A stretch of DNA of 64,000 bases, from NCBI GenBank assembly GCA_964515375.1, contig CAZERF010000001.1, positions 45,777 to 109,776 on the forward strand. Reading direction: 5' to 3'. Every line of letters begins with the position of its first letter. The stretch's first letter is position 1. Position numbers and translations under genes: made by a program. The notes below the pieces were generated by a model, which was not told the origin of the DNA, did no database searches, and was given only the letters and a program-made list of their open reading frames with translations. This DNA comes from an uncultured Candidatus Saccharibacteria bacterium. GTDB taxonomy: Bacteria > Patescibacteriota > Minisyncoccia > Phycocordibacterales > UBA6899. Of this stretch, positions 1,232 through 25,849 are shown piece after piece.

Positions 1232-3757
1232 TTGTTCAATAACGTTATGAACGAAGAACAGCACTATCAGGAGGGAACTCAGGAAGAAAAGCGGTCTTCT
1301 CTCTCACGTTTATTGCTCGGCAAGATCGTCGGTCATCGTATTTTCTCGGACCGGGTCTTGTTCTGGATCGTTTTGGGGGTCTCGTTCTTGCTCCCCATAT
1401 TCTTTGTTCCGGGTCAGTTTGCGACTCCCGAGTTCGCAAAGATACTCCTCCTTGAGGTTGCGGTACTTTTTGGTGTTTTTGCGTGGGCGATGGGACGTTT
1501 ACGAGACGGACATGTCGAGACGCCGAAGAGTCTTTTGCTGCTCATTTCTTTCTTGCTCGTCCTCCAATTTGTTGTCTCGGCGTTGTTCTCACCGTCTCCG
1601 ATCGTTTCGTTCCTTGGTACAGGTTATGATATTGGTTCGGCAAGTATCTTTGTTGTGCTCTTCCTCCTCATGTTCCTCGCGTCACTTGTCTTCCGCGATC
1701 GCGATCGGGTGCTCATGCTCTTTGCGTCATTCTTGTTGAGTGGATTGATCGCAATGCTCTATCACCTTGCTCGCCATCTCTTTGGTGCAGATCTTCTTGA
1801 TTTTGGTATATTCACAAGCCCTGTGGCAACTCCTGTTGGAAAATGGAACGACCTCGCGGCGATCACCGGCGGAGTTCTTGTACTCACGCTCTCCACGCTG
1901 TACTTCTTTCCGGACAATAAGTCGTTGCGTTTTCCGGCAGGTATCATTCTTGCCCTCGGCCTCTTTTTCCTTCTCATCATCGATTTTACTGTTCTCTGGT
2001 TCATTCTGCTCGTGGTTGTAGGTTTCTTGACCGTTCTTTCAGTGTATGAAGGCGAGCGCGCTCATCGCAGATCTCTCGCCGAAGCGGAAGCTTCCGGTGC
2101 GGAGCATCCTCGTCATCCTGTGCACCGTAGGGTGATCCGCCATCTTCCTGTTTTTGCGAGCGTTCTTCTTGTTGTATGTGCAGTTTATGCGAGCGGACTT
2201 GCCACGCTTCCTTGGGGAAGTGAGCGTGCGACCATCGCCGGAGTCATCGCCCGAACACTCAATGCTTCTCCGTATTCCGAGGTCGTGCTTACCCCTAGGA
2301 CAACTTTTGAGATCGTGAGCGCGACACTCCAAGATTCTCCCGTCTTTGGTTCCGGACCAAACCGTTTTGGAAGCAGCTTCTTGCTCCACAAGTCTTCAGA
2401 AATGAATCTTACTCCTTTTTGGGATTCGTCTTTTGATTATGGTGTCGGGCGAATACCGACCTACTTTGGCACAACGGGCATGATCGGCATGTTGCTTTGG
2501 CTCGTCTTCATTGTGGTGCTCCTCATGAAGTCAAAGAAGATCTTTCGTTTGTTTGAACAAGATCGTATTGCTTCATATCTTGCTTTTACACTTTTCCTCA
2601 TGACGATCTATCTTTGGGGGCTTGCATTCTTCTACCTTCCAAATATCGCAATATTCTCACTCGCCTTCGTCTTCACTGGTGCACTCGTTGCGTTTCTTGT
2701 GCACGAACGAGTGCTTGGAGTCCATACCGTCTCGTTCGGGAGTTCGCGCATTTCCATGGTTGTCACGCCGGTCTTGATCGTTGTTCTCGTTGGTATCACC
2801 GCTTCCGGGGTCCTTTTGTATCGACAGGTTTCTTCTCTTGTTTCATTCCGTGAAGCACAACTCGCATTGAATTCAGGGGACCTTGATACAGCGGAGACAG
2901 CGATCAGGCGTGCGGTCGGATTCTCTTCACATGATATCTATTATCGCACGATGAGTAATGTCGCGTTGGTTAGACTTTCACGTCTTGCAAGTGCGACCGA
3001 CATCCCGCAAGAAGAACTTGCAGAGCAGGTAAAGAGTCGCATCAATGATGCCCAGGTGTATGCGCGCCGCGCCATCGAGATCGATCCTGAGAATTTTGAG
3101 AATCATCTCCAGCTTGGAGGAGTATTTGATACACTTGGCTCATTGGGAATCCAGGATACGGGAGAAGCGGCGAGAGCAAGCTATGAGCAAGCGCTCCGCT
3201 TGAATCCCAAAAGCCCGCGGATCCTCTTTGTCCTTGGTCGTTTGGAGTACGTTTCTGGCAATCAGACTAAGGCGAAAGAATATCTCACTCGCGCGCTTCT
3301 TGAGCGTCCGAATTACCTCGAAGCGATCTCTTTTGTTGTTCAGCTCGATCTGCAAGAAGGGAAGACAGAGGACGCTATTGCGGTGCTTTCGAATGGTGTC
3401 GCGGCGGAGCCCACCAACTTCTTGCTCCGCTTTGCCCTTGGCTACCTCCATTACTCGAATGCGAATTATAGTTCCGCGATTCCGGAGTTTGAAATGGCGA
3501 TCATGTTGAACCCCGTCTACTCTGATGCGAAGTACTTTCTTGGCCTTTCCTACGCGCAAATTGGCCGTCGAGACGATGCGATACTCCAATTTACCGACAT
3601 ACAAACATTGAATCCCGATAATGCGGAGGTCATCAAGATTCTCGACAACCTTAAGGCAGGTCGAGATCCGTTCTCCCCGCCTCTTTCTCTTTCCACTACT
3701 CCGATCGAGGATGCTCTCGGAGATCTTGATCAAGGTGAGGGTTCTGTTGAAGAATAG
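1232..3757 (+). CDS. Polytopic membrane protein with an O-antigen ligase/Wzy_C-like core and C-terminal TPR repeats
   Basis: The 841-aa ORF has ~10 predicted TM helices in its N-terminal two thirds. The C-terminal ~250 aa consist of TPR-like repeats (EAISFVVQLDLQEGKTEDAI..., YFLGLSYAQIGRRDDA...). The architecture is typical of Wzy_C/O-antigen-ligase family proteins. Confidence 0.65.
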   Translation: MFNNVMNEEQHYQEGTQEEKRSSLSRLLLGKIVGHRIFSDRVLFWIVLGVSFLLPIFFVPGQFATPEFAKILLLEVAVLFGVFAWAMGRLRDGHVETPKSLLLLISFLLVLQFVVSALFSPSPIVSFLGTGYDIGSASIFVVLFLLMFLASLVFRDRDRVLMLFASFLLSGLIAMLYHLARHLFGADLLDFGIFTSPVATPVGKWNDLAAITGGVLVLTLSTLYFFPDNKSLRFPAGIILALGLFFLLIIDFTVLWFILLVVVGFLTVLSVYEGERAHRRSLAEAEASGAEHPRHPVHRRVIRHLPVFASVLLVVCAVYASGLATLPWGSERATIAGVIARTLNASPYSEVVLTPRTTFEIVSATLQDSPVFGSGPNRFGSSFLLHKSSEMNLTPFWDSSFDYGVGRIPTYFGTTGMIGMLLWLVFIVVLLMKSKKIFRLFEQDRIASYLAFTLFLMTIYLWGLAFFYLPNIAIFSLAFVFTGALVAFLVHERVLGVHTVSFGSSRISMVVTPVLIVVLVGITASGVLLYRQVSSLVSFREAQLALNSGDLDTAETAIRRAVGFSSHDIYYRTMSNVALVRLSRLASATDIPQEELAEQVKSRINDAQVYARRAIEIDPENFENHLQLGGVFDTLGSLGIQDTGEAARASYEQALRLNPKSPRILFVLGRLEYVSGNQTKAKEYLTRALLERPNYLEAISFVVQLDLQEGKTEDAIAVLSNGVAAEPTNFLLRFALGYLHYSNANYSSAIPEFEMAIMLNPVYSDAKYFLGLSYAQIGRRDDAILQFTDIQTLNPDNAEVIKILDNLKAGRDPFSPPLSLSTTPIEDALGDLDQGEGSVEE

Positions 3758-3763
3758 CATCCC

Positions 3764-5446
3764 ATGGTTGAGCGTTTGCTCCGTGTTTTCAACAGAGAAT
3801 GGAACGGTCTTCATGAGGCCGCCTTTCTCTTGGCTGGAACGGCGGTTGTTTCTCAGGTTCTTGGCCTTGTTCGTGATCGCATGCTGGCGCACCATTTTGG
3901 AGCGGGGAGGGAGCTGGATATCTACTATGCGGCATTTCGGATACCGGATCTCCTCTACGCATCCATTGCCTCCTTCGTGGCGGTGACAGTACTCATTCCT
4001 TTTCTTTTGGAACGCACCAAAGATGGTCACCCGACTTCCGAAGGAAGGACATTCATCAACTCGGTGTTTTCTGTGTTCCTCTTTGCGATCACCACTATTT
4101 CTCTCGCACTCTTCTTTCTTATTCCGACCATCGCGCGGCCACTGGTTCCCGGTTTTACAGAAAGTGAGTTCGATCTCTACGTGCTTCTTACACGGCTCCT
4201 CCTCCTTTCTCCTCTCTTGCTCGGGATCTCAAACCTCTTTGGTTCGATCACTCAATCTTTGCGAAGGTTTGTTGTTTTTGCGGCAGGTCCCATCCTCTAC
4301 AACATCGGCATTCTTTTCGGTATCTTTTTTCTTCTCCCGACTCTTGGCATTGAGGGGGTCGTGTGGGGTGTGATCTTGGGAGCATTGCTTCATGTGCTTA
4401 TTCAACTTCCCGTACTTTTCGCCGAGCGTTTTGTTCCGCGGTTGACCTTTCGCATTGATCGTGCTGCGATATTTCGTGTCATTACACTCTCAATACCACG
4501 TACGGTCGCGCTTTCGGTCGGGCAGGTCGCTACGATCATTCTTGTTTTCTTTGCCTCGGGGATGACGGCGGGATCGATCGCTGTCTTTACTCTTGCGATG
4601 AACTTGCAAAGCATCCCGCTTTCGGTTGTGGGTATGAGTTATTCGGTTGCCGCATTTCCTACGCTTGCGCGGCTTTGGACGAATGGGAACAGAGAACAGT
4701 TTGTCGACCAGATCCTCTCAGCATCGCGGCATATTATCTTTTGGTCACTCCCGGCAATCGTTCTCTTTATTGTTCTGCGCGCGCAGATCGTGCGTACGAT
4801 CCTCGGTTCTGGAGCCTTCGACTGGACGGCGACCCGATTGACGGCGGCTGCGCTCGCATTGTTTGCGTTTTCGGTCATTGCGCAGAATCTCGTTCTCCTC
4901 TTTACTCGCGCATTTTACGCGATGGGGCGAACAACATTTCCCCTCATTGCGAATCTCGCGGGCGGATTCGCGATCGTCTTTCTTTCTTTCTTTTTACTCG
5001 CACAGTTCACGCTTCACGATACTTTTCGCTATTTCATTGAGTACATCCTCCGTGTTGAGGGAACTCACGGTACTCAAGTGCTGATGCTCCCACTCGGATA
5101 TTCGCTCGGAATGTTCGCAAATGTTGCCTTCTTGCTCTTCTTTTTGCGTCGAGAATTTCCGTCAATCAGTAGCGGTGTCAAAAGAGCTTTTCTTCATAGC
5201 TTCGCGGCTTCGGTCTTTCTCGGTTTTGTTTCGTACCATGCTCTTCAAGTCTTCGCGTTCATCTTTGATCAGAATACATTCTTGGGAATATTTTTGCAGG
5301 GCCTCTTGGCGGGATTGGTCGGGCTTGTTGCATGGGTCTTTTTGTTGCGTGTCCTTCAGAATCGCGAGCTTGAAGAGGTACACAGCGCGCTCCGCCACAA
5401 GTTCTGGAGGGCGAAGCCGATCGCCGCGGAACCCGAGAGTTTTTGA
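3764..5446 (+). CDS. murJ: Lipid II flippase MurJ/MviN
   Basis: The 560-aa ORF has ~14 TM helices. Its N-terminus VVSQVLGLVRDRMLAHHFGAGRELDIYYAAFRIPDLLY matches the MurJ signature LSRVLGFVRD...FGAG...DAF..AFRIPN. Confidence 0.85.
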   Translation: MVERLLRVFNREWNGLHEAAFLLAGTAVVSQVLGLVRDRMLAHHFGAGRELDIYYAAFRIPDLLYASIASFVAVTVLIPFLLERTKDGHPTSEGRTFINSVFSVFLFAITTISLALFFLIPTIARPLVPGFTESEFDLYVLLTRLLLLSPLLLGISNLFGSITQSLRRFVVFAAGPILYNIGILFGIFFLLPTLGIEGVVWGVILGALLHVLIQLPVLFAERFVPRLTFRIDRAAIFRVITLSIPRTVALSVGQVATIILVFFASGMTAGSIAVFTLAMNLQSIPLSVVGMSYSVAAFPTLARLWTNGNREQFVDQILSASRHIIFWSLPAIVLFIVLRAQIVRTILGSGAFDWTATRLTAAALALFAFSVIAQNLVLLFTRAFYAMGRTTFPLIANLAGGFAIVFLSFFLLAQFTLHDTFRYFIEYILRVEGTHGTQVLMLPLGYSLGMFANVAFLLFFLRREFPSISSGVKRAFLHSFAASVFLGFVSYHALQVFAFIFDQNTFLGIFLQGLLAGLVGLVAWVFLLRVLQNRELEEVHSALRHKFWRAKPIAAEPESF

Positions 5447-9340: not shown

Positions 9341-9589
9341 TTGCATATGAAACCGGTATCCATCTATACAACTGAGACGTGCGGTTATTGCAAGATGGCG
9401 AAGGAGTTCTTCGTCAAACACAACATCTCGTACGAAGAGTATGACGTGGGGAAAGATCTTGCGCGACGTCAAGAGATGATCGAAAAAACGGGGCAGATGG
9501 GCGTCCCTGTGATCACGGTTGACGGAGAGTTGGTCGTCGGATTTAACAAAGCGCGCCTTTCTGAACTCCTCGATCTTCCCGTTGCGTAA
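9341..9589 (+). CDS. Glutaredoxin-like protein (NrdH/YruB family)
   Basis: The 82-aa ORF has a CGYC active-site motif after the first beta strand (IYTTETCGYCKMAKEF) and a thioredoxin-fold length. Confidence 0.75.
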   Translation: MHMKPVSIYTTETCGYCKMAKEFFVKHNISYEEYDVGKDLARRQEMIEKTGQMGVPVITVDGELVVGFNKARLSELLDLPVA

Positions 9590-9611
9590 GCTCTAGGAAA
9601 TGGGTATCATA

Positions 9612-9647
9612 AAAAGGTTCTTGTGCAAACAAGAACCTTTTGTTTTG
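9612..9647 (+). terminator. Rho-independent terminator downstream of the glutaredoxin-like gene
   Basis: Hairpin AAGGTTCTTG-tgcaaa-CAAGAACCTT followed by TTGTTTTG. Confidence 0.6.
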
Positions 9648-9656
9648 TACTACATC

Positions 9657-9729
9657 GGTACGGCGGTGATGGTGGTTCCTTTGAGGAATCGAACCATGAT
9701 GAGATGTGAATGTTATTTTTGCTCCCGTA
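9657..9729 (+). repeat. Direct repeat copy 1 (73 bp), followed by a degenerate tRNA-like sequence up to ~9783
   Basis: It is identical to 9866-9938. The copy ends in GCTCCCGTA, the first 9 nt of the tRNA-Arg gene. The downstream 9730-9783 retains the GCTCC-GTCCTGA anticodon-arm-like and GGGAGCC acceptor-like segments but is otherwise diverged. Confidence 0.8.
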
Positions 9730-9865
9730 TGAAGTGGATAGTGGAGCTCCGTCCTGAGGTGAGGTGCGGCGTTGGGAGCCCATTCTGATGGGAGCCGCAC
9801 CGCAAGACCTTTTGAGATATTTTGTGAACAATGTGATGCAAAATATCCAAAAGGTGTACTGCGCC

Positions 9866-9938
9866 GGTACGGCGGTGATGGTGGTTCCTTTGAGGAATCG
9901 AACCATGATGAGATGTGAATGTTATTTTTGCTCCCGTA
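9866..9938 (+). repeat. Direct repeat copy 2 (73 bp), overlapping the 5' end of tRNA-Arg
   Basis: Exact copy of 9657-9729. Confidence 0.8.
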
Positions 9939-10001
9939 GTTCAATGGATAGAACAGCTCCGTCCTAAGGAGTTGATGGTGGTTCGATTCCTCCCGGGAGC
10001 A
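9930..10001 (+). tRNA. tRNA-Arg (anticodon CCT)
   Basis: Hand-folded. The acceptor stem is GCTCCCG/CGGGAGC. The D arm is GTTC-AATGGATA-GAAC. The anticodon stem is GCTCC/GGAGT with loop GTCCTAA. The T arm GGTGG-TTCGATT-CCTCC has one U-U mismatch. No CCA is encoded. Confidence 0.65.
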
Positions 10002-11515
10002 CAAAACAAGACTTCTGACGAAGTCAACGAGCGCGGCGAAGCCGCGCGAGAAAAAGAAAAAGGAGAAATACGCCGTCGCTCCGCGACGAAATGGCTGGGC
10101 GAGGACACGGAAAAGTGGGCGGCTTTGTCACGAACTGCATGGTTCGTTCCAATTTTTTGGACGAAGTCGGCAATTTCGGAGAAATTGTCAGACGAGGACA
10201 AAAAAGTGGCTTGTTTCGTATCTTTTACCCACTCCCGCAATGGTTCGATCCAAGTATTTCCCCGACGTTCACAATCTTTCTTTTTCTCGTTCAAAGTTGC
10301 GAGAGAGCGCATGGTAGCATCCTTCTTTTTCAGATAAATCTCTTTGGGTATGTCTCCATCCAAGTATGTTGAAACGAGTTTGTCCATGCGCTCCTCGTCC
10401 GCTTTGATTTTTTCGGAAAGATTGCGAACCTCGCTCCCTGAAACGGAAGTAGCTTCTTGCTCCCATGTCTCAACTTGCTCCAACATCCAATCGGTATAGC
10501 GATCAGGGAGCGAGATTGTTTGAAGCCGTACTTGCAACTGCTCTGCGAGGTTTCGCTCTTGCACGTACCCTTGCGAGCAAGTGCCGTGCTTTTTGGTACA
10601 GCGATAGTAGCGATAGATACCACCATTGCCTTTGGCGTGTTGCGCCGTGAACATGCCACCGCACTCCCCACAGCGAAACAAGCCAAGAAACGGAAAGTCA
10701 TGCCTGTTCCTTCGCTTCGGCGCACGCGCCTTGCTCGCAAGAACTTTTTGCACGGCTTCAAACAATGTCGGTGAAATAATTGGTTCAAATGTGCCATCAA
10801 ACCATTCACCATTGTGGCGAACAAAACCGAGATATGCTCGATTGCTCAAAAGGTGCCTGACGGCACATTTGGCAAGTGGCTTTCCTTTCGAACTGGTAAC
10901 GCCTAAATCCGCCAAAAACTGCGACAAACTAACAAGACCATGCGTGCCTTTGGCATATTCCTCAAAAGCGCAAGCAACAATCTTTGAATTAGTCGGATGA
11001 GGTTCGATGTTTCTCGTTTTCTGATTGTTCACATACCCAAACGGCGCTTTGGTGAGCCATTCGCCACGGCGCAGTTTTTGGCGGATGCCTCTTTTCACAT
11101 TCTGTACCAAATTGTCCGAGTAGTATTTAGATTGCCCAAAAGCCACTTGCAACATAAAGAGCCCTTGCGGAGTGGGTTCAAACCAAAAGGTCGGAAAGCG
11201 CAAAGACACAATACGCTCGGTATCCACCGCATAGATGACGCGGCCTCCATCAATACTATTTCTAGCCAGACGGTCGGGGTGCCATGCGAGTATCCCCGAA
11301 GCTTCTCCCGTTTCAATGCACGTCATCATCTCATTAAAAATAGGACGACCGGGTGTCTTTGCGCTTTTCGACTCTTGAAACTCCGACAGAATTTCAAGAT
11401 TTTCTTTACGTGCAAATTCATGTAGTTCAAACAACTGCGCTTCTATACTCATGACTTGTTTATCGTCATCTTCGGTGCTTTTTCGAGCGTAAAGAAAATA
11501 TTTTGGTTTGATCAT
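9941..11515 (-). CDS. Large serine recombinase (resolvase/invertase N-terminal domain + recombinase domain + zinc ribbon)
   Basis: The N-terminus YARKSTEDDDKQ carries the catalytic Ser in the resolvase motif. DRLARN and a recombinase domain follow. The zinc ribbon is CGECGG...YYRC. The C-terminal ~60 codons of the ORF are encoded by IR1-left and end inside the tRNA-Arg gene. The true stop may therefore differ. Confidence 0.85.
   Translation of the reverse strand: MIKPKYFLYARKSTEDDDKQVMSIEAQLFELHEFARKENLEILSEFQESKSAKTPGRPIFNEMMTCIETGEASGILAWHPDRLARNSIDGGRVIYAVDTERIVSLRFPTFWFEPTPQGLFMLQVAFGQSKYYSDNLVQNVKRGIRQKLRRGEWLTKAPFGYVNNQKTRNIEPHPTNSKIVACAFEEYAKGTHGLVSLSQFLADLGVTSSKGKPLAKCAVRHLLSNRAYLGFVRHNGEWFDGTFEPIISPTLFEAVQKVLASKARAPKRRNRHDFPFLGLFRCGECGGMFTAQHAKGNGGIYRYYRCTKKHGTCSQGYVQERNLAEQLQVRLQTISLPDRYTDWMLEQVETWEQEATSVSGSEVRNLSEKIKADEERMDKLVSTYLDGDIPKEIYLKKKDATMRSLATLNEKKKDCERRGNTWIEPLREWVKDTKQATFLSSSDNFSEIADFVQKIGTNHAVRDKAAHFSVSSPSHFVAERRRISPFSFSRAASPRSLTSSEVLFCAPGRNRTTINSLGRSCSIH
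9999..10129 (+). repeat. Inverted repeat IR1, left copy (131 bp); it starts inside the 3' end of tRNA-Arg
   Basis: Its reverse complement is identical to 11567-11697 (checked base by base at both ends). Confidence 0.85.
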
Positions 11516-11566
11516 AATTTTTTCCCATTAAAAAGATTGATAAAAATCATGCGATACGAAACAAGA

Positions 11567-11697
11567 GACAAAGCCGCCCACTTTTCCGTGTCCTCGCCCA
11601 GCCATTTCGTCGCGGAGCGACGGCGTATTTCTCCTTTTTCTTTTTCTCGCGCGGCTTCGCCGCGCTCGTTGACTTCGTCAGAAGTCTTGTTTTGTGC
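11567..11697 (+). repeat. Inverted repeat IR1, right copy
   Basis: Reverse complement of 9999-10129. Confidence 0.85.
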
Positions 11698-11935
11698 AGA
11701 AATACTGACCTTTGCTCGAACCCATTTCGAGAAAGGACAATGATCGTGCCGCGCGGAGCGCGTGGTGATGCGAACGCGAAGCGTACGCATTCGGAAATGT
11801 CTGCGCGCCTCGCTGCCTCGCCAGCTCGGCTCCCAAAACCAAAGAAATATCCTTACAATCATTTTTTCGGTGGAGGGGTGTGGGGAGGAGCCGACAGAAA
11901 AAGGAAAGGATATTTCTTTGGTTTGGGATCGCCGC
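11695..11935 (+). repeat. Inverted repeat IR2, left copy (241 bp), abutting IR1-right
   Basis: Its reverse complement matches 13643-13884 with a single mismatch. Confidence 0.85.
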
Positions 11936-12028
11936 AATGAGTTCTTAAAAATCATTTCCCCACCATTACCCTAGTATATTATACTATAATAGTCGTGTAT
12001 AATGTAATAGTTGGGTATAATTGTGGAT

Positions 12029-12232
12029 ATGAATGAGTCCGCAATGCTCGGCAACAATTTGAAAAGGATTCGCGAAGCGAAAAATATGTCTCAAGGTGAC
12101 ATCATGCGCTCTTTGGGATGTAGTCGTAGTTACATAAGTAATATAGAGAACGGAAAAACTAATCCAACACTTTCAACTATCGCTAAGTTGGCAAAAGCGG
12201 TTGGTGTTCCACTTAATAAGTTATTGCAATAA
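12029..12232 (+). CDS. XRE-family helix-turn-helix transcriptional regulator
   Basis: MNESAMLGNNLKRIREAKNMSQGDIMRSLGCSRSYISNIENGKTNP is a canonical HTH_3 motif. It lies in an AT-rich segment. The TTG at 12011 is an alternative start. Confidence 0.8.
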   Translation: MNESAMLGNNLKRIREAKNMSQGDIMRSLGCSRSYISNIENGKTNPTLSTIAKLAKAVGVPLNKLLQ

Positions 12233-12236
12233 GTTT

Positions 12237-13199
12237 ATGAAATCGAAAGCCATCATTATAATTTTTATACTTTTTGTTCTGTTATTTTTAGGTGGCAGAT
12301 ACATTTACTATGGTTCTGTAACGCGCGATTGTATTTATACTGAAAACAAGTTACCCGTACCTGGAGCACTCGAAGCCGGTACTGTAGTTGTGGCAAAGGA
12401 TGCCTACTTAGCTATCGGCATAGACAAAGAGCATGAATGCTTGGACTCGTTTGGAAAAATAGACAGGGAGATTGTAGGACCAGACACAATCAACAACCTT
12501 ACGATAGGAAGGCAATATTTTACTAACAGAGGACTATCTGTACAGACACTTAAAAAGGGAAATGAGTTCAAAGTTGTTGATATTATCTCCGTCACTAAAC
12601 ACGGTCTGTCAACGATAGATTCTGGGCCAGGGCCTATCTATTATCTTATTTTGCAAAGTAGCGACGGGTTACTTTACCAAATTGCAACAGTATCACTCGG
12701 ACTTAATAAACAAGACTTGTTTCTTGCTTTTGTTGACGGTACCCAGAATTACGATCCATCCGCTCCCCAGCTATTAAGTCCAGACAGTTTTAACGAGACT
12801 TATAGTTATGAAGGAGCAGATTCACTCACGTATACTGGAAAACTAACTCAATTAACAGACGATTATCTTCAAAGTACAGAACCACAGTGGAAAAAGTTAG
12901 CAGACCGACTTGAGCGTGGTGAAAAATTTCTCATCATGGTAGATATTGACTTACGAGATGATGCTTTCAGACCGATTATCCTCTCTGAAAACTCAGAAGC
13001 AAGATACAATCAAGTAGCTCAAATACAAGACGAGTTTCTTAAAAAGATACCAAATAATATTGTCCTGAACGGACTTGAAAAAAACCAATCTTGGCCATAT
13101 ATCTCTATGGAGGCAAATCTAGATTTATTGAATTACTTGGTTGATCATCAGGTAGAGTTAAAAATTAAGTCAATATCTGAACTACAAAAAGTGCAGTAA
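12237..13199 (+). CDS. Hypothetical membrane-anchored protein (AT-rich cargo gene)
   Basis: The ATG is 4 nt after the XRE stop. The N-terminal TM anchor is KAIIIIFILFVLLFLGG, followed by a ~290-aa soluble domain. No family was recognised. GC content is far below the flanks. Confidence 0.55.
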   Translation: MKSKAIIIIFILFVLLFLGGRYIYYGSVTRDCIYTENKLPVPGALEAGTVVVAKDAYLAIGIDKEHECLDSFGKIDREIVGPDTINNLTIGRQYFTNRGLSVQTLKKGNEFKVVDIISVTKHGLSTIDSGPGPIYYLILQSSDGLLYQIATVSLGLNKQDLFLAFVDGTQNYDPSAPQLLSPDSFNETYSYEGADSLTYTGKLTQLTDDYLQSTEPQWKKLADRLERGEKFLIMVDIDLRDDAFRPIILSENSEARYNQVAQIQDEFLKKIPNNIVLNGLEKNQSWPYISMEANLDLLNYLVDHQVELKIKSISELQKVQ

Positions 13200-13642
13200 A
13201 AACGTCCGTCTCGCTATCCCCGCGGCAAGCCGACGGGGCATTACGCGGGCGGAATCGGGCGTTTTTGCTAGTTAAGGAATCCCCTCCGGTGATACTTTGT
13301 TTAATGTCGCATTCATCCTCGAGGCAAGCCCACGAGGCATTCTGCGACGTTCTAGTAAAAGACATTCGAGTGTCACGAAAAAGATTGGTTTGTATAGCAG
13401 GTTTTTGAAATCGTAATACACTCAACCGAAGCCACTAAGCTCACACACGGAAGCACCGCAGCAGCTCGCGCGAGCGGAGCGAGCGAGCTGTGCGGAGGTG
13501 CTGGAGTGTAGTGAGCGAACGTTAGAATCACCACGCAGGTTCGCTACGGGAGAGCGCCTCGCACGCCGCGAGTACGGAGAAAAGCGAAGTGGAAGACTCT
13601 CAAATAAAATGGGAACTGAAACAAAGCTTTTTGGAGGACAAA

Positions 13643-13884
13643 GCGGCGATCCCAAAACAAAGAAATATCCTTTCCTTTTTCTGTCGGCTCCTCCCCACAC
13701 CCCTCCACCGAAAAAATGATTGTAAGGATATTTCTTTGGTTTTGGGAGCCGAGCTGGCGAGGCAGCGAGGCGCGCAGACATTTCCGAATGCGTACGCTTC
13801 GCGTTCGCATCACCACGCGCTCCGCGCGGCACGATCATTGTCCTTTCTCGAAATGGGTTCGAGCAAAGGTCAGTATTTCTGCAC
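13643..13884 (+). repeat. Inverted repeat IR2, right copy
   Basis: Reverse complement of 11695-11935. Confidence 0.85.
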
Positions 13885-13918
13885 TTTTTCTTTCTTTCCC
13901 TCATGCTATAATAAACAG

Positions 13919-14216
13919 CATGGCGATATCAGAAGAAAGCGCGCATGACAAGCTCGACGAGGTGCTTGAGCTCGTTCGTGAGAACAACAAAATCCTCCGC
14001 ACAATGCATCGCCGTATGTTGTGGAGTCAGGTCTTTACTTTTGTATACTGGATCATCATTCTCGGCGTTGCGGGTTGGGCGTATTACTATTTCCAGCCGT
14101 ATGTTGAGCGTTATGTGAACACGTATCAGGCGATCGTCGGCAATCTTGAGAATCTTGATAGTCAAGGGACGGATTTCCCCAGTGAGCTCAAGTCGCTTCT
14201 TGATAAAGTAAGGTAA
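13919..14216 (+). CDS. Small membrane protein, hypothetical
   Basis: The ATG is at 13919, just past IR2-right (MAISEESAHDKLDEVLELV...). There is one TM helix, VFTFVYWIIILGVAGWAYYYF. The longer track ORF from 13716 would read through the repeat. Confidence 0.5.
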
Positions 14217-14241
14217 ATAAGGTATCCTTGAGGACATCGCA

Positions 14242-14317
14242 GTTGCGATATGCCGAGGTAGCTCAGTTGGTAGAGCGCTCGCCTGAAGAGCGATAGGTCA
14301 CCAGTTCGACCCTGGTC
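14242..14317 (+). tRNA. tRNA-Phe (anticodon GAA)
   Basis: Hand-folded. The acceptor stem is GCCGAGG/CCTCGGC. The D arm is GCTC-AGTTGGTA-GAGC. The anticodon loop is CTGAAGA. The T arm is ACCAG-TTCGACC-CTGGT. CCA is encoded. Confidence 0.85.
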
Positions 14318-14320
14318 CTC

Positions 14321-14505
14321 GGCACCACAATAGGCTCAGTTGGTGAGCAAAGTCTGCTTCTGAAAGCAGACACCAGGTTTGCTTTTTGGACAAGGTGTCC
14401 GCCACCGCGGACGCCAGCCACCACTCGTCTTCTTCGCCTTGCTGCGAAGTCGATCACCAATAGAGCGCATGCCTTTCGAGCGACGGGTCACCAGTTCGAC
14501 CCTGG
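14321..14505 (+). repeat. Scrambled tRNA-Phe-derived sequence: D-arm copy + 110-nt insert with three hairpins + copy of the tRNA 3' two-thirds (14451-14505)
   Basis: TAGGCTCAGTTGGTGAGC matches the Phe D arm with one inserted G. 14451-14505 (TAGAGCGCATGCCTTTCGAGCGACGGGTCACCAGTTCGACCCTGGTCCTCGGCAC) matches the tRNA-Phe 3' portion except in the anticodon arm. No 5' acceptor strand is present. Confidence 0.7.
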
Positions 14506-14512
14506 TCCTCGG

Positions 14513-14541
14513 CACTGTCAAATCAAAACCGCCCATGAATG
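14513..14541. terminator. Bidirectional rho-independent terminator
   Basis: Perfect palindrome AAAACCGCCCAT-GA-ATGGGCGGTTTT, lying between the tRNA cluster and the convergent Hsp20 gene. Confidence 0.65.
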
Positions 14542-14572
14542 GGCGGTTTTGATTATAGGAAAGAAGGGTTTG

Positions 14573-15124
14573 TTACACTGATTTCACCTTCAATTCCTGA
14601 ATGCGTTTGGTGTCAAATTTTGAGAGTCGAATGATGAGCAGTCCGTATCTTTCGACGGCGTCAGCCTTGTCTGGATCGACTTCATGCGGAAGTTCGATCT
14701 CGCGACGGAACGGACCCCAATAGAGTTCTCGAATGGCATAATTTTCATCAGGGATTCCTTCCGGCTCATTGCGCCTACCCTCTATGGTGATCGTTTTTCG
14801 TGTGATCGAAATATGAAGATTCTCGGGCATGACCCCCGCGATCATACACTGAACGATGATCTCGTTGTCTACCTCATAGAGGTCAACTGCCATTCCGGGA
14901 ACTTCGCTCTCGTCTTCTTCCTCAGGATCCTCGTCCGACTCTTCTTTTGCCTCGTCTTCTTTGTGCTCATCTTGAGACAAAAGGAGCTCCTCATCGTGTT
15001 CGGTGAGTTCCTTTTCAGGCTGGGAAATTTTGCGTTCTTGGTATTCCTCCTCTTCAAGCTCGTCCGGTACAAAGGGGCGTGACCCTGTCAGATGTTCGAG
15101 AAATGATGGTTTGCGTCCTTTCAT
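14573..15124 (-). CDS. Hsp20/alpha-crystallin family small heat-shock protein with an acidic N-terminal extension
   Basis: There is an alpha-crystallin domain (VDLYEVDNEIIVQCMIAGVMPENLHISI...AIRELYWGPFRREIELP). The N-terminus is rich in E/D. Confidence 0.8.
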   Translation of the reverse strand: MKGRKPSFLEHLTGSRPFVPDELEEEEYQERKISQPEKELTEHDEELLLSQDEHKEDEAKEESDEDPEEEDESEVPGMAVDLYEVDNEIIVQCMIAGVMPENLHISITRKTITIEGRRNEPEGIPDENYAIRELYWGPFRREIELPHEVDPDKADAVERYGLLIIRLSKFDTKRIQELKVKSV

Positions 15125-15888
15125 AGATGAGAAGAGATATTATTGGGTAAGAATACAGTGACCGTTCCTGTGTTCGAGTATTCGACATGACTCCGTGGTG
15201 GCATCCGTTTGATCCGCTCGCAAGCAAGAAGGAGTCCCAAGACAAATACCCAAAGCACAATGAAGATCTCATAGATATATGAACCCTCACTTACAATTAT
15301 AGAGAAGTTGAAGAGGGTATGCAACACGATCGCACTTATGAGTCCGATCCCCGCAACGATCTGTCGCATGGAACGCTTTTGATAGAACGCGAGCGCAAGC
15401 ATGACACCGATCGTTCCGCTTGCGGCGACATGAAGTAGCGTCGCACCAACAAAGCGGAAGTTCCCGAGCATGATCGCGGCAAGAGTATCCCCACCGGAAA
15501 GGGGGTTGTAGAGGAAGAGTGCGTTTTCAAGTGCTGAAAAACCAAGCGCGATCGTCACAAGATAGATGACCGCGTCGATCGGTTCGTCGAAAAATCGTGT
15601 ACGTAAGGCGACGATGTAGATGCCGAGGAACTTGAGCGTCTCTTCCGCAACAGCCCAAAGGAACAAGAGGGAAAGCTCGCTTCCTTGTACATGTGTCGCA
15701 ATGAAGCGCTCGACCGGATACGCAAGCGCGGTCGCCAGCATTCCGACAAGAAACGAGAGGAGGATCAGCGCCCGAGGCTCCGGGTGTAGGCGGTCTTCCT
15801 TGAGCCAGAACCAAAGCCAAAAGACGGCGGGAAGCAGTCCTCCCAGTAACGCAAAAAAGATAATCGTTGGTGTCATGCTGTCGGCCAT
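15121..15888 (-). CDS. PrsW/CPBP-like intramembrane metalloprotease
   Basis: The 255-aa ORF has ~7 TM helices. AEETLKF (EExxK), FSALEN and two conserved His residues in TM helices fit the PrsW protease family. It overlaps the Hsp20 start by 4 nt. Confidence 0.55.
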   Translation of the reverse strand: MADSMTPTIIFFALLGGLLPAVFWLWFWLKEDRLHPEPRALILLSFLVGMLATALAYPVERFIATHVQGSELSLLFLWAVAEETLKFLGIYIVALRTRFFDEPIDAVIYLVTIALGFSALENALFLYNPLSGGDTLAAIMLGNFRFVGATLLHVAASGTIGVMLALAFYQKRSMRQIVAGIGLISAIVLHTLFNFSIIVSEGSYIYEIFIVLWVFVLGLLLACERIKRMPPRSHVEYSNTGTVTVFLPNNISSHL

Positions 15889-18119
15889 GCGGTCACCAGA
15901 AGTGGCTCCTTATGCTCAGGGAGCGATTGCCAGATCTCTTCGGTCACGTAGGGGATGAAGGGGTGCTGTAGTTTAAGTAGAGTGATAAAGAGGTGTCGTA
16001 GTGTCCATTGCGCGGAGCGTTTCTCGGGAGAGTCGGGGCCGTTTAGGAGCGCTTTTTCTTGCTCAATGATCACGTCCGCGAATTCGTTCCATGTGTAGTG
16101 ATAGAGTCGCTCTCCCGCAAGGTGGAGTTTGTATTCCTCGATATGTTTGGTCACAAAACGAGTGAGCTCATTAAGATCATCGATCAATTTTTTGTGCGCG
16201 GGAAGAATCTCAGGTTTGGCGTCTTCGGGAAGGTCTTCTGTGGTACTGATGACAAATCGAGCAATGTTCCAGATCTTGTTGGTGTATTTTTTGTAACCGC
16301 GGATCTTTTCTTCGGAAAGATTGATGTCGGATCCGGGTCCGGTACCGATGAGGAGCGAAAGGCGAGTGGCGTCCGCGCCATATTTTACGATCATGTCGAG
16401 CGGGTCGATCGCGTTGCCTTTTGATTTCGACATCTTTTGACCCTTGCTGTCGTGGACAAGTCCGTGGAGGTAAACCTTTTCGAATGGGATCTCTCCGAGG
16501 TGGTACGTAGACATGAGGACCATACGTGCAACCCAAAAGAAGAGGATGTCGTACCCTGTTTCAAGGAGCTGCGTCGGGTGGTATGTCTGCAAGTCAGTTG
16601 CATCTTCGTCTGGCCATCCGAGTGTCGAGAACGTCCAGAGTCCCGACGAGAACCATGTATCAAGCGTGTCGGGGTCCTGCTCCCATCCGTCTCCTTCCGG
16701 CGCCTCTGTTTCGACAAGAACCTCTTCCTGCTCGCCGGTCTTTTTGTACCAGACGGGAATACGATGTCCGTACCAGATCTGTCTCGAGATGCACCAATCA
16801 CCTAGATTGTCGATCCACTGGAAGTAGGTCTTGTTGAATCGCTCAGGAAGGATCTCGACTTGTTCATTCTCGACCACTTTGCCCATTAGCTCTTTAAGGG
16901 TTACTTGGTCACCCGCTTCGAGTCCTTTGATGTTTGAGCGTTTGAGTGTGAAGGGTTTGTTGACCGCGATGAACCATTGGAGTTTGGGGAGGGGCTCGAT
17001 GACTGCGCCGGTGCGTTCCGCAGTTGAAACATTTTGTTTGACATCTTCCTCGCCCGTCAAGAGTCCTTCCTCTTTGAGCCAGGTTACGATCGCCTCGCGC
17101 GCTTCATTGACCTTCCTTCCGAGTATGCGTTCATCTCCGACCGTTATCTTTGCATACTCGTTGATCACCGGTTTCACCTCAAGATGGTGACGCTGCGCGA
17201 TATCCCAGTCGATGCGGCTGTGCGCGGGGGTGACCCCAAGCGCCCCGGTCCCGAATTCTTTGTCCACGGTGTGATCGGCAATCACCTTGATCGTGAGGGG
17301 GACACCACAAAAGGTCACCTTGTATTCCTTTCCAACATACGCCTTGTAGCGTTCATCGTCGGGATGCACTGCGACCGCAGTATCCCCGACCTTTGTTTCC
17401 GGTCGAGTCGTGGAGATGGGAATAGGGAAGTCCTTTGCGTAGGTGAAAGTATAAAGCTTCGCGCTTCGTTCTTCGTAGACGATCTCGTCATCTGAGATCG
17501 TTGTCTGTCCTTTGGGGTCCCAGTTGATGACACGGTATCCGCGATAGATGAGACCGTCATCGTACATGCGTTTGAAGGCAGTGCGGACAGCAAGGGAACG
17601 TTCATCGTCGAGTGTGAACGCCTCGCGAGACCAGTCGACCGATGCCCCCATTTTCTTGACCTGATGTACGATCGTGTCGTGACTCTCTTGAGCAAATTGC
17701 CGTACCCGAGCGAGAAACTCTTCTCGTCCAAGATCGTGTCGTGATAGACCTTTTTCCTTTTGAAGGATCTTTTCCACTTTTGATTGAGTGGCGATGGCCG
17801 CATGGTCGGTACCCGGGATCCACAATGTACGTTTTCCCGACATGCGGTGGTATCGCACGACGGTGTCTTCGATCGCAAGCATCGCGGCGTGGCCCATATG
17901 AAGGACTCCCGTTACATTTGGAGGGGGGAGTACGATCGCGAAGGTTTTTGCATCGGGTTTCGTGTGACCCTTTGCAACAGAGGTGTCGGGGTTAAAATAT
18001 CCCGAATCAAGCCAATCCCGATAGATCCTATCTTCGGTCTCTTCGGGTTTGTAGGGAGAAAGAAACTTGTTGTCCATGTTGCCCATCATACCACAGATTC
18101 TAAAAACGTGAGTGTTCAT
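15873..18119 (-). CDS. valS: Valyl-tRNA synthetase (short form lacking the C-terminal coiled-coil)
   Basis: PPPNVTGVLHMGHA is the HIGH-type motif. GTDHAAIATQ is present. KMSKSKGN is the KMSKS motif. Similarity to ValRS extends throughout. Confidence 0.95.
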   Translation of the reverse strand: MNTHVFRICGMMGNMDNKFLSPYKPEETEDRIYRDWLDSGYFNPDTSVAKGHTKPDAKTFAIVLPPPNVTGVLHMGHAAMLAIEDTVVRYHRMSGKRTLWIPGTDHAAIATQSKVEKILQKEKGLSRHDLGREEFLARVRQFAQESHDTIVHQVKKMGASVDWSREAFTLDDERSLAVRTAFKRMYDDGLIYRGYRVINWDPKGQTTISDDEIVYEERSAKLYTFTYAKDFPIPISTTRPETKVGDTAVAVHPDDERYKAYVGKEYKVTFCGVPLTIKVIADHTVDKEFGTGALGVTPAHSRIDWDIAQRHHLEVKPVINEYAKITVGDERILGRKVNEAREAIVTWLKEEGLLTGEEDVKQNVSTAERTGAVIEPLPKLQWFIAVNKPFTLKRSNIKGLEAGDQVTLKELMGKVVENEQVEILPERFNKTYFQWIDNLGDWCISRQIWYGHRIPVWYKKTGEQEEVLVETEAPEGDGWEQDPDTLDTWFSSGLWTFSTLGWPDEDATDLQTYHPTQLLETGYDILFFWVARMVLMSTYHLGEIPFEKVYLHGLVHDSKGQKMSKSKGNAIDPLDMIVKYGADATRLSLLIGTGPGSDINLSEEKIRGYKKYTNKIWNIARFVISTTEDLPEDAKPEILPAHKKLIDDLNELTRFVTKHIEEYKLHLAGERLYHYTWNEFADVIIEQEKALLNGPDSPEKRSAQWTLRHLFITLLKLQHPFIPYVTEEIWQSLPEHKEPLLVTAWPTA

Positions 18120-25430: not shown

Positions 25431-25540
25431 TCGTAAATATCGCAAAGCTTTCGATTTCCCGACGTGAGCAAAGCAGTTTGCTCACTTGGGGTCACAGACA
25501 AAAATGGCAATGCTTTCGCATTGCTCATGTTTTGTATCTG

Positions 25541-25612
25541 TGACCCCACGGGGAATCGAACCCCGATTTACGCCGTGAAAGGGCGCTGTCCTAACCGTTA
25601 GACGATAGGGCC
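25541..25612 (-). tRNA. tRNA-Glu (anticodon TTC)
   Basis: Hand-folded on the minus strand. The acceptor stem is GGCCCTA/TGGGGTC. The anticodon stem is GCGCC/GGCGT with loop CTTTCAC. The T arm is CGGGG-TTCGATT-CCCCG. Confidence 0.85.
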
Positions 25613-25727
25613 AAAATGATCGACAAGATCGCGCTTTTTGCGAGGTTTTGCCGATGTGTCAGATATTAGCATATTCACTGGAAAAATCTAGCGGGGTATG
25701 ATAGATTTCTACAGTATCATTCGCAAA

Positions 25728-25814
25728 GGAGATGTGGCTGAGTGGTTGAAGGCAGCAGTTTCGAAAACTGCCGTAGGGGAAACCCTACCAGAGGTTCGAA
25801 TCCTCTCATCTCCG
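25728..25814 (+). tRNA. tRNA-Ser (anticodon CGA), type II with long variable arm
   Basis: The acceptor stem is GGAGATG/CATCTCC. The anticodon stem is GCAGT/ACTGC with loop TTCGAAA. The variable arm is CGTAGGGGAAACCCTACC. The T arm is AGAGG-TTCGAAT-CCTCT. Confidence 0.85.
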
Positions 25815-25849
25815 CAATCGACCCAAGAGGAAGCAACGCGCTTCCGGTT

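Follow-up and report, generated by a model that had tools for sequence, protein, structure and literature searches.

Our analysis points to a small integrative element in a 64,000-nucleotide stretch of DNA from an uncultured Candidatus Saccharibacteria bacterium (contig CAZERF010000001.1; the whole stretch is referred to here as the window). Positions 10003-13884 are most probably occupied by an element that is built around a large serine recombinase (LSR) and that entered by recombination of its own attachment site (attP) with a target site (attB) at the 3′ end of a tRNA-Arg(CCT) gene. The outer junctions are ordinary LSR attL and attR sites with a 4-bp core. As judged from the sequence, what appears unusual is the targeting of a tRNA 3′ end through a mimic of the T-loop, an attB of which one half is conserved, a recombinase open reading frame (ORF) that spans the crossover and, above all, an internal inverted attP. 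An earlier sequence-only reading had offered an integrated mobile, tRNA-targeting element as one explanation, and this is borne out by an exact empty site, a partial copy of ~99.4% identity elsewhere and more than 100 loci at tRNA 3′ ends. The same reading found the arrangement unlike att organisation. That view did not hold, since the outer junctions are ordinary and the odd part is the extra inverted attP.

Organisation of the element

The host tRNA-Arg(CCT) gene lies at 9930-10002 on the plus strand, as determined with ARAGORN, Rfam, junction alignment and the empty-site relative L169 described below. The left, B-type half of attB consists of the T-arm and 3′ acceptor strand of this tRNA. 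The attL core, GCAC, is tRNA nucleotides 71-74 (9999-10002, plus strand) and was placed by the flank match to L169. Two pairs of inverted repeats were recovered by both a repeat finder and BLAST self-comparison. In the first pair (IR1), the outer arm A (9999-10129, plus), which is the P′ half of attP, is matched over 131 nt at 100% identity by its exact reverse complement, the internal arm A′ (11567-11697, plus); coordinates and identity are those first read. In the second pair (IR2), the internal arm B (11694-11935, plus) is non-coding, and its reverse complement, the outer arm B′ (13643-13884, plus), ends in the attR core GCAC at 13881-13884. This pair had been located correctly, but its length is 242 nt with one mismatch, not 241 bp. 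The inner arms of the two pairs overlap by 4 bp, GTGC (11694-11697, plus), and this overlap is the core of the internal site; the GCAC common to attL and attR is the same core in the other orientation.

The unit formed by A′ and B (11567-11935) is one contiguous piece. Its sequence is that of the joined ends B′/A read in reverse complement, so it is a second, intact and inverted attP, which lies between the divergent recombinase and XRE/cargo genes. The two repeat pairs form a single composite inverted duplication of ~369 bp. The abutment that had been described stands, in the form of the 4-bp overlap, and the nesting does not. No further copy of IR1 or IR2 was found in the 64-kb window by BLAST self-comparison, so the dispersed repeats (miniature inverted-repeat transposable elements, MITEs) that had been raised as a contrary outcome were not encountered there.

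Between arms B and B′ lies an AT-rich cargo (GC 0.35-0.40 versus ~0.50 in the flanks). It begins with an XRE-family helix-turn-helix (HTH) regulator at 12011-12232 (plus strand; Pfam HTH_3, E=1e-17), which is divergent from the recombinase. A cargo ORF follows at 12201-13199 (plus strand; 332 aa as given in the ORF list), although its likely start is the ATG at 12237. The cargo protein has no Pfam match and shows, by eye in its translation, a hydrophobic N-terminal stretch. Base composition, HTH_3 match and translation all agree with the first description of this cargo. The segment ends in a GC-rich non-coding tail (13200-13642) without an Rfam match, in which two similar hairpin motifs were seen at about 13208-13250 and 13300-13345. 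Rfam searches, at gathering thresholds and at E≤1, matched only the two tRNAs here, which indicates that the arms are not a known RNA family. A scan for promoters and terminators gave counts not above those of shuffled sequence, and no conclusion on promoters was drawn from it.

Empty site and mobility

From the A′/B unit it was predicted beforehand that the inserted unit would run from core to core, that attL and attR would share GCAC and that the empty site would read tRNA-Arg…CCCGGGA-GCAC-TTTTTCTTTC. The search of related genomes for an empty tRNA-Arg site, which the sequence-only reading had proposed, was successful in contig L169 (GCA_013565675.1), which was reached through homologues of the flanking 98-aa protein. 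Gene order in L169 is the same (DUF5671, glutaredoxin, tRNA-Arg, a 101-aa gene, tRNA-Phe, HSP20, PrsW), and its sequence is exactly the predicted empty site (tRNA-Arg…CCCGGGA-GCAC-TTTTTC…). Window positions 9347-10002 align with 2578-3252 of L169 and positions 13881-16000 with 3249-5378, the two alignments overlapping by the 4 bp GCAC. Because the flanks match on both sides with this overlap, the element can be delimited to 10003-13884, or 3,882 bp. The empty-site comparison further shows that insertion was precise and that the repeat at the target is limited to the 4-bp overlap. With the element in place the tRNA-Arg still scores 61.5 bits in Rfam, and the tRNA is left intact. The closest genome copy (L001, 88% identity) had also been considered as a source of an empty site; it was not syntenic and gave none.

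The same comparison sets the outer limits of the element. L169 also carries the 98-aa gene, tRNA-Phe, the partial tRNA-Phe copy and the pseudo-tRNA-Arg with its direct repeat. Since these four features occur in a genome with an empty site, they are host features or older relics that lie outside the element. The module had been taken to end at tRNA-Phe (14252-14327; ARAGORN and Rfam, which also confirmed the tRNA-Arg call); it ends instead at 13884. Likewise, the repeat and pseudo-tRNA beside tRNA-Arg and the tail beyond tRNA-Phe do exist, but not as parts of the element. Nor do the repeats supply alternative 5′ ends to the ORF at 13919-14216, as had been suggested: the host 98-aa gene (13920-14216) has its ATG at 13920, outside the element and behind its own TATAAT, and is intact at the empty site.

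Evidence of movement between genomes was provided by contig L171 (ENA ERZ724549), which is 99.4% identical to window positions 9920-11935, including the last ~80 nt of tRNA-Arg. It covers the core, arm A, the recombinase, arm A′ and arm B (~1.9 kb of the element) and ends at the end of arm B. Its context is a different tRNA-Arg(CCT) allele with unrelated flanks. Taken together, the L169 empty site and the L171 copy show that the element has moved recently and site-specifically, with a recent transfer between hosts.

Several traces of older events surround the site. The direct repeat with its decayed tRNA-Arg copy aligns 9646-9759 with 9855-9969 (115 nt at 90%). Over the longer spans 9646-9800 and 9855-10002 it comprises a decayed 5′ tRNA-Arg copy and ~85 bp of upstream sequence, followed by a GGTGCGGC…GCCGCACC hairpin. 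This copy is conserved in the empty-site relatives L169 and L170 and is thus older than the present insertion; it could be a relic or, alternatively, a tRNA-like RNA with a function. A partial 3′ copy of tRNA-Phe (14461-14515, 87%) lies ~135 bp downstream of tRNA-Phe, with tRNA-like fragments between the two (14328-14515) and the same arrangement in L169. Its appearance is that of a scar left by another, older integrative element. In L170, a remnant of ~390 bp (2870-3259) follows tRNA-Arg. It starts GCAC-AAAAACGAGAC, as arm A does, holds a CACAAAAACG…CGTTTTTGTG mini inverted repeat and looks like a collapsed former element.

The recombinase and arm A

The 524-aa recombinase (9941-11515, minus strand) had been called a large serine recombinase, and a profile search found three Pfam domains in agreement with this: Resolvase (PF00239, residues 7-153, E=1.5e-21), Recombinase (PF07508, residues 174-260) and Zn_ribbon_recom (PF13408, residues 275-324). 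The catalytic serine motif YARKST is at residues 9-14. Distant matches in the PDB were SPbeta Int (residues 9-415) and A118 Int (residues 221-388), and the former alignment extends through the region expected for the coiled-coil insertion of the second DNA-binding domain (DBD2). The start codon lies 51 bp from arm A′, which is upstream of it. At the other end, the last ~45 codons are inside the left arm of IR1, so the repeat does encode the C-terminus as first reported; the ORF then crosses attL and stops in the antisense strand of tRNA-Arg.

Arm A starts exactly at the DK of an invariant …GTNxxVRDK motif, and its minus strand encodes the tail DK(S/T)A(R/H)F…PSxFVAxRR…EVxFC, which ends at the core. 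Codon-position entropies showed that third positions are the most variable at the conserved residues of this tail, which suggests that it is very likely translated. Past the core, the ORF reads the tRNA antisense strand (…GNRT…/…GIRT…) in most homologues and arm B (…EILTFARTxFE…) in 13 of the 120 homologues listed, and the C-terminal tail therefore falls into tRNA-antisense and arm-B classes that vary with context.

Two hairpins were also found in arm A. The first, GC-rich, is GCGCGGC-GAA-GCCGCGC (10031-10047, with its mirror in arm A′ at 11649-11665), and the second is CGTCGC-TCC-GCGACG (10074-10088, mirrored at 11608-11622), which was also picked up by a terminator-like scan. In an alignment of 37 diverse elements, helix 1 was paired in 90.8% of cells, with five of its five pairs changed on both sides, and helix 2 in 81%, with three of six pairs so changed. 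For both hairpins together, 85.5% of cells were paired and 31 double-change cells were counted (6.5±2.1 in shuffles), while controls with slid partners gave 9-50% pairing. RNAalifold on a MAFFT alignment found one hairpin. These patterns suggest that the arm A hairpins are kept by compensatory changes, although the same DNA encodes the recombinase tail.

Attachment sites and predicted target recognition

To describe the sites, attP (from the internal unit), attL and attR were aligned from 21 elements. The core is a 4-mer NCRC, namely GCAC at tRNA genes for Arg, Gly and Leu, TCAC for Glu and CCGC for Ser, and the equivalent shared cores span 4-7 bp. Across the family the crossover is always at tRNA nucleotides 71-74. 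On the tRNA side, the distance from the core to the start of the T-loop GGTTCGA is 19 nt. Arm B′ has a conserved CTCGAAATGGGTTCG(A/C)GCAAAGG, in which GGTTCGA is 25 nt from the core, or 6 bp further out. The CTCGAAATGGGTTCGAGCAAAGG motif stands at the core-proximal end of arm B as its reverse complement on the plus strand and reads directly in arm B′. Arm A has a conserved ACTTC at +9 to +13 and GAAAG at +21 to +25, the GAA of the latter being as far from the core as the CGAAC of arm B′. In the flank-side half of attB, no conserved motif was found in 19 attR junctions, and a quasi-palindromic attB was not recovered.

In characterized LSRs, the second DNA-binding domain sits 5 bp (4 bp for SPbeta) nearer the centre in attB than in attP, and this offset tells the two sites apart (PMC11722253). 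Based on these observations, we predict that the T-loop sequence GGTTCGA, which is universally conserved in tRNAs, is the B-type half-site for the recombinase, and that the mimic GGTTCG(A/C)GC in arm B′, 6 bp further from the core, is its P-type half-site.

The lack of conservation in the flank-side half would explain how occupied sites can be used again and how tandem arrays arise. In such arrays a newcomer has inserted at the tRNA/A junction of the resident and left B′/A junctions (L013, L037). Three elements stand in array at L037 907-14316, spaced by identical 191-bp direct repeats that include a partial tRNA-Ser 3′ end. At L013 7561-17883 there are two, of which a member of a distant sub-family (40% identity) adjoins the tRNA and the older element is displaced. 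A third locus, L083, at first resembled a recombinase with a cargo module on either side, but it is better explained as a tandem array or a chimeric assembly.

Arm B itself holds a 22-bp palindrome (11833-11854 / 11906-11927) around a G-rich 51-nt loop (…GGAGGGGTGTGGGGAGGAG…). Arm B′ has its own such palindrome within 13651-13745, and similar ones occur in the B arms of L082 and L086.

A family of elements in Patescibacteria

Exact-sequence look-ups of the recombinase and the cargo protein of the window gave no match, and the family was reached through homologues. The homologue search for other copies, likewise proposed at the outset, returned 6,568 recombinases at E<1e-20; the named ones among them belong to Patescibacteria. 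The analysis covered 80 loci from species-representative genomes, 80 from metagenomes and a small number of additional contigs. More than 100 Patescibacteria loci, at no fewer than 12 tRNA species, share the layout. An inverted repeat of ~130 bp has one arm in the 3′ end of the recombinase gene and the other 30-60 bp upstream of its start, and a second inverted repeat of 40-330 bp abuts the upstream arm and brackets 0.13-9 kb of cargo. The 39 complete elements range from 1.9 to 11 kb, share the same abutment of A′ and B and include copies in the complete chromosomes CP060229.1 and OY970382.1. On this sequence evidence, the layout appears to define a very large Patescibacteria family, with an internal inverted copy of its own joined ends as the hallmark.

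Its presence in complete chromosomes excludes, for practical purposes, an assembly artefact such as a fold-back chimera or collapsed repeat. Related contigs do often end within the arms, and some of the short ones are open to more than one reading. However, the layout comes from more than 100 loci and independent studies, the repeat boundaries coincide with the breakpoints of the empty site, and the arms often differ by a few bases or have decayed, unlike the product of an artefact. As for MITE copies, the arms are specific to each element, and the window holds no other arm copy. We therefore consider it scarcely conceivable that the repeats are artefacts or MITEs. Breaks 100-300 bp upstream of the recombinase are common among the contigs, and contigs of ~1.7-2 kb are the source of many homologues; long perfect inverted repeats would account for both.

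The notion of two independent, adjoining units of insertion-sequence (IS) type, one bounded by A arms with the recombinase and one by B arms with the cargo, must also be weighed. Terminal inverted repeats do bound each unit separately, alternating units form chains in L013, L037 and L083, and one element is almost cargo-less (L071; 1.9 kb, 41-bp B arms, no second gene). Against this, the junction between the units is always at the same 4-bp core, and their relative order and orientation never vary. The empty site shows arrival or loss as one 3,882-bp piece, and the 168 loci included no cargo unit or recombinase unit standing alone between two tRNAs. Two separate units are thus a very improbable explanation, and a single integrative element is the reading followed below.

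At 104 classified loci the tRNA is convergent with, and overlaps, the 3′ end of the recombinase gene; the tRNAs concerned are Arg, Glu, Ser, Gly, Leu, Val, Ala, Lys, Ile and Tyr. Sub-clades of the recombinase follow the tRNA type, and relatives 73-88% identical to the window enzyme are all at tRNA-Arg. Other tRNAs with GCAC at nucleotides 71-74 in the window are unoccupied. Several genomes hold two copies of the element. A tRNA-Glu(TTC)/tRNA-Ser(CGA) pair at 25540-25815 of the window is empty here. In at least seven other genomes (L011, L016, L018, L022, L024, L035, L082) this pair is a hotspot that Ser-specific relatives occupy.

The two arms of a pair are 97-100% identical in most elements, ~90% in some and 74-87% in L001, L035, L076 and L082. 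Near-identical arms imply either continuing exchange in active elements or renewal at each transfer. The only recurrent gene other than the recombinase is that for an XRE regulator, found in 26 of the 39 complete elements; in 24 of these it adjoins the inner B arm, points away from it and is divergent from the recombinase. The remaining cargo is hypervariable. It includes beta-helix, PKD and peptidoglycan-binding proteins, a GTP cyclohydrolase II–methyltransferase fusion, an aromatic amino-acid lyase, a cytochrome d1-like protein, PLD and FAD enzymes and a set resembling type I restriction-modification with an AAA ATPase.

Replication, conjugation and capsid genes were absent from the cargo of the family elements. 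A scan of viral contigs found no relative; its patterns came from a single protein, so that it covers close relatives only. Taken with the lack of phage genes in the cargo, this result argues against a phage origin. Phage and plasmid records gave only matches below 60% identity, the best of those listed being 23-29%. No prior description of the family was found in the full-text literature, a coverage that leaves out most papers in subscription journals, and Patescibacteria together with 'serine recombinase' had only a passing mention, in one paper, in the literature covered. The family is apparently undescribed.

Orientation of the two segments and a proposed mechanism

Both segments of the element can apparently invert, with one arrangement strongly predominant. 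The recombinase segment is canonical at 104 loci and flipped at two, and the cargo segment is canonical in 24 cases and flipped in one. In L082, only the recombinase segment is inverted: tRNA-Ser(CGA), arm A, the recombinase, arm A′, arm B and the XRE gene follow in that order, with all three genes pointing the same way. Its arms are only 87% identical, which excludes confusion by the assembler. In L086 the tRNA 3′ end is joined to the arm A upstream of the recombinase, so that the recombinase segment is again inverted. In L114 the cargo segment alone is inverted, the XRE gene adjoining the outer arm and pointing inward, with B arms 96.6% identical. Contigs L084 and L085 present the same element with cargo in opposite orientations, a case that is ambiguous as the B arm is longer than the assembler k-mer. 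The sequence-only reading had suggested a pair of invertible segments; the three inverted loci lend this weak support, and 104 loci keep the orientation seen in the window.

A recombinase-driven double inversion switch, of inverton or shufflon type, would have the LSR flip both the recombinase arc, by acting on attL and the internal site, and the cargo arc, by acting on the internal site and attR. The recombinase would be ON when driven from the tRNA and OFF when antisense, and transcription from the element ends into host genes would be altered. In favour of such a switch, all three sites share a core and each pair is inverted, relatives include an inversion of each single arc, the near-perfect arms imply that exchange is ongoing, and the flipped recombinase of L082 and L086 is directly downstream of the tRNA and co-directional with it. 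However, orientation is nearly fixed at the counts given above, the divergence of the L082 arms suggests an old, fixed inversion and not active switching, and the start and promoter of the flanking ORF both lie beyond the element ends. Moreover, synapsis of attL with attP is not carried out by canonical LSRs (PMC11722253). We consider the double switch unlikely.

A free form resembling the 2-micron plasmid of yeast, amplified by fork flipping and with tRNA integration as a secondary resting state, is a still less probable explanation, to which we give little credence. The circularized element would indeed have two long inverted repeats with one recombinase site each and two unique arcs, and ~11% of homologues are on contigs of 1.7-4.6 kb in which the recombinase reads into arm B. 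In contrast, there is no conserved module for replication or partition and none resembling an origin, terminal direct overlap was seen in no contig, and nearly all long contigs show chromosomal integration. The minimal element L071, so small and without cargo, also fits a plasmid poorly, as do the results already described for viral contigs (close relatives only) and for plasmid and phage records.

With an integrative LSR element as the preferred reading, the following mechanism is proposed. The recombinase would recognize the tRNA T-loop, with attP carrying the displaced mimic. On excision, a circle would form in which two inverted attP sites, within inverted repeats of ~370 bp, separate a recombinase arc from a cargo arc. 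Recombination between arms, by homologous recombination or by the LSR, would keep them near-identical and occasionally flip either arc. In the prevailing orientation both gene 3′ ends would face outward, with the recombinase antisense to tRNA read-through. We infer that this arrangement is transcriptionally quiet and hence the stable state.

Several observations weigh against this reading. No circular form was found. The short contigs in which the recombinase runs into arm B (the 13 of 120 homologues listed; L081, L084, L085, L088) are ambiguous. They may equally come from assembler paths through collapsed repeats or from tandem arrays; no terminal overlaps were found in them, and they end inside repeats, with a B arm longer than the assembler k-mer. 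With a circle that integrated at random through either of two equivalent attP sites, double-flipped insertions should make up about half of the total, and none was seen. An extra assumption is thus needed, namely that this isomer is unstable or selected against, or else the circle model is incomplete. No conserved candidate for a recombination directionality factor (RDF) was found, only the XRE gene being recurrent (26 of 39), although RDFs are too diverse for one to be excluded, so that excision itself has to be inferred. The half-site offset is 6 bp here and 4-5 bp in published LSRs (PMC11722253). Finally, canonical LSRs recombine neither attL with attP nor attP with attP, and LSR-driven inversion would be without precedent.

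Two further schemes were considered and rejected. In one, the circle would resolve into a recombinase circle and a cargo circle; this was discarded because the core is not palindromic in most sub-families. In the other, the LSR would act on a folded, single-stranded dumbbell, and chromosome ends capped by hairpins would result.

It is a tentative and rather doubtful proposition that the internal attP and long arms form a device not known for serine integrases, either a flip switch worked by the LSR or an attP paired within one strand. In the flip version, the LSR would recombine attL, the internal attP and attR, and the resulting ON/OFF switch would couple recombinase expression to tRNA read-through and make an RDF unnecessary. 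In the pairing version, pairing of the arms within one strand would allow a single-stranded or circular intermediate to restore attP in double-stranded form. To our knowledge, the host bacteria lack conjugation and rely on DNA uptake. Either version, if true, would be a new mode of mobility for LSR elements and would have arisen in such bacteria.

Comparison with known systems

The LSRs of phages and elements (SPbeta SprA/YokA, Listeria A118/LI Int, phiC31, Bxb1) have the same order of Resolvase, Recombinase and zinc-ribbon domains as the enzyme described here. As in those systems, the att sites share only a few central bp, and a motif is displaced by about half a helical turn between attP and attB (PMC11722253). 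In contrast, the enzyme is less than 30% identical to phage and plasmid LSRs among the best matches listed, and it targets the last nucleotides of many tRNA genes, apparently through the T-loop and with one half of attB conserved. The element also differs in an ORF that runs through the crossover, in a second, inverted attP within long perfect repeats, and in the lack of a conserved RDF candidate and of phage or conjugation genes.

The tycheposons of Prochlorococcus are similar in being small, with variable cargo, in their use of tRNA genes and tandem accumulation next to them, and in living in streamlined genomes without classical mobile-element machinery (bioRxiv 10.1101/2020.12.28.424599). 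However, 474 of the 501 described carry tyrosine recombinases, and they have replication modules and att repeats of ~40 nt that leave partial tRNA copies (bioRxiv 10.1101/2020.12.28.424599). The present element has an LSR, a shared sequence of 4 bp, no replication module and an internal inverted attP.

A likeness to two inversion systems is of another kind. The predicted circle, with two long inverted repeats that each hold one target of the element's own recombinase and with two unique arcs between them, recalls the yeast 2-micron plasmid, whose FLP recombinase acts on FRT sites in 599-bp inverted repeats. That plasmid has a tyrosine recombinase, a eukaryotic host and autonomous replication and partition, whereas the present element is known in its integrated form, and its circle geometry is a prediction. 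Hin/hix, Gin/gix and Cin/cix consist of small serine recombinases with a C-terminal HTH, sites of 26-34 bp and an enhancer. They too have the recombinase gene in or next to a segment bounded by inverted sites, and both orientations are found among relatives of the present element. The element differs in its 524-aa LSR, its arms of 131-242 bp, its two abutting segments, its near-fixed orientation and the mobility of the whole unit.

Patescibacteria, also known as the candidate phyla radiation (CPR), have tiny genomes in which few mobile elements are recognized. With thousands of recombinase homologues, several copies in genomes of ~1 Mb and cargo that includes surface proteins, metabolic enzymes and restriction-modification genes, this family may be a major route of gene gain in these bacteria. 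It also explains the frequent assembly breaks beside tRNA genes in CPR genomes. The family offers dozens of natural sets of LSR, attP and attB, the last predicted from the sequence to be a tRNA 3′ end, with possible use in CPR genetics and as orthogonal integrases. The half-conserved attB, the T-loop mimic, the ORF through the crossover and foremost the inverted second attP bear on the question of LSR directionality.

Elsewhere in the window, at 726-1067, a bacterial class A RNase P RNA was identified (128 bits), which is unrelated to the element.

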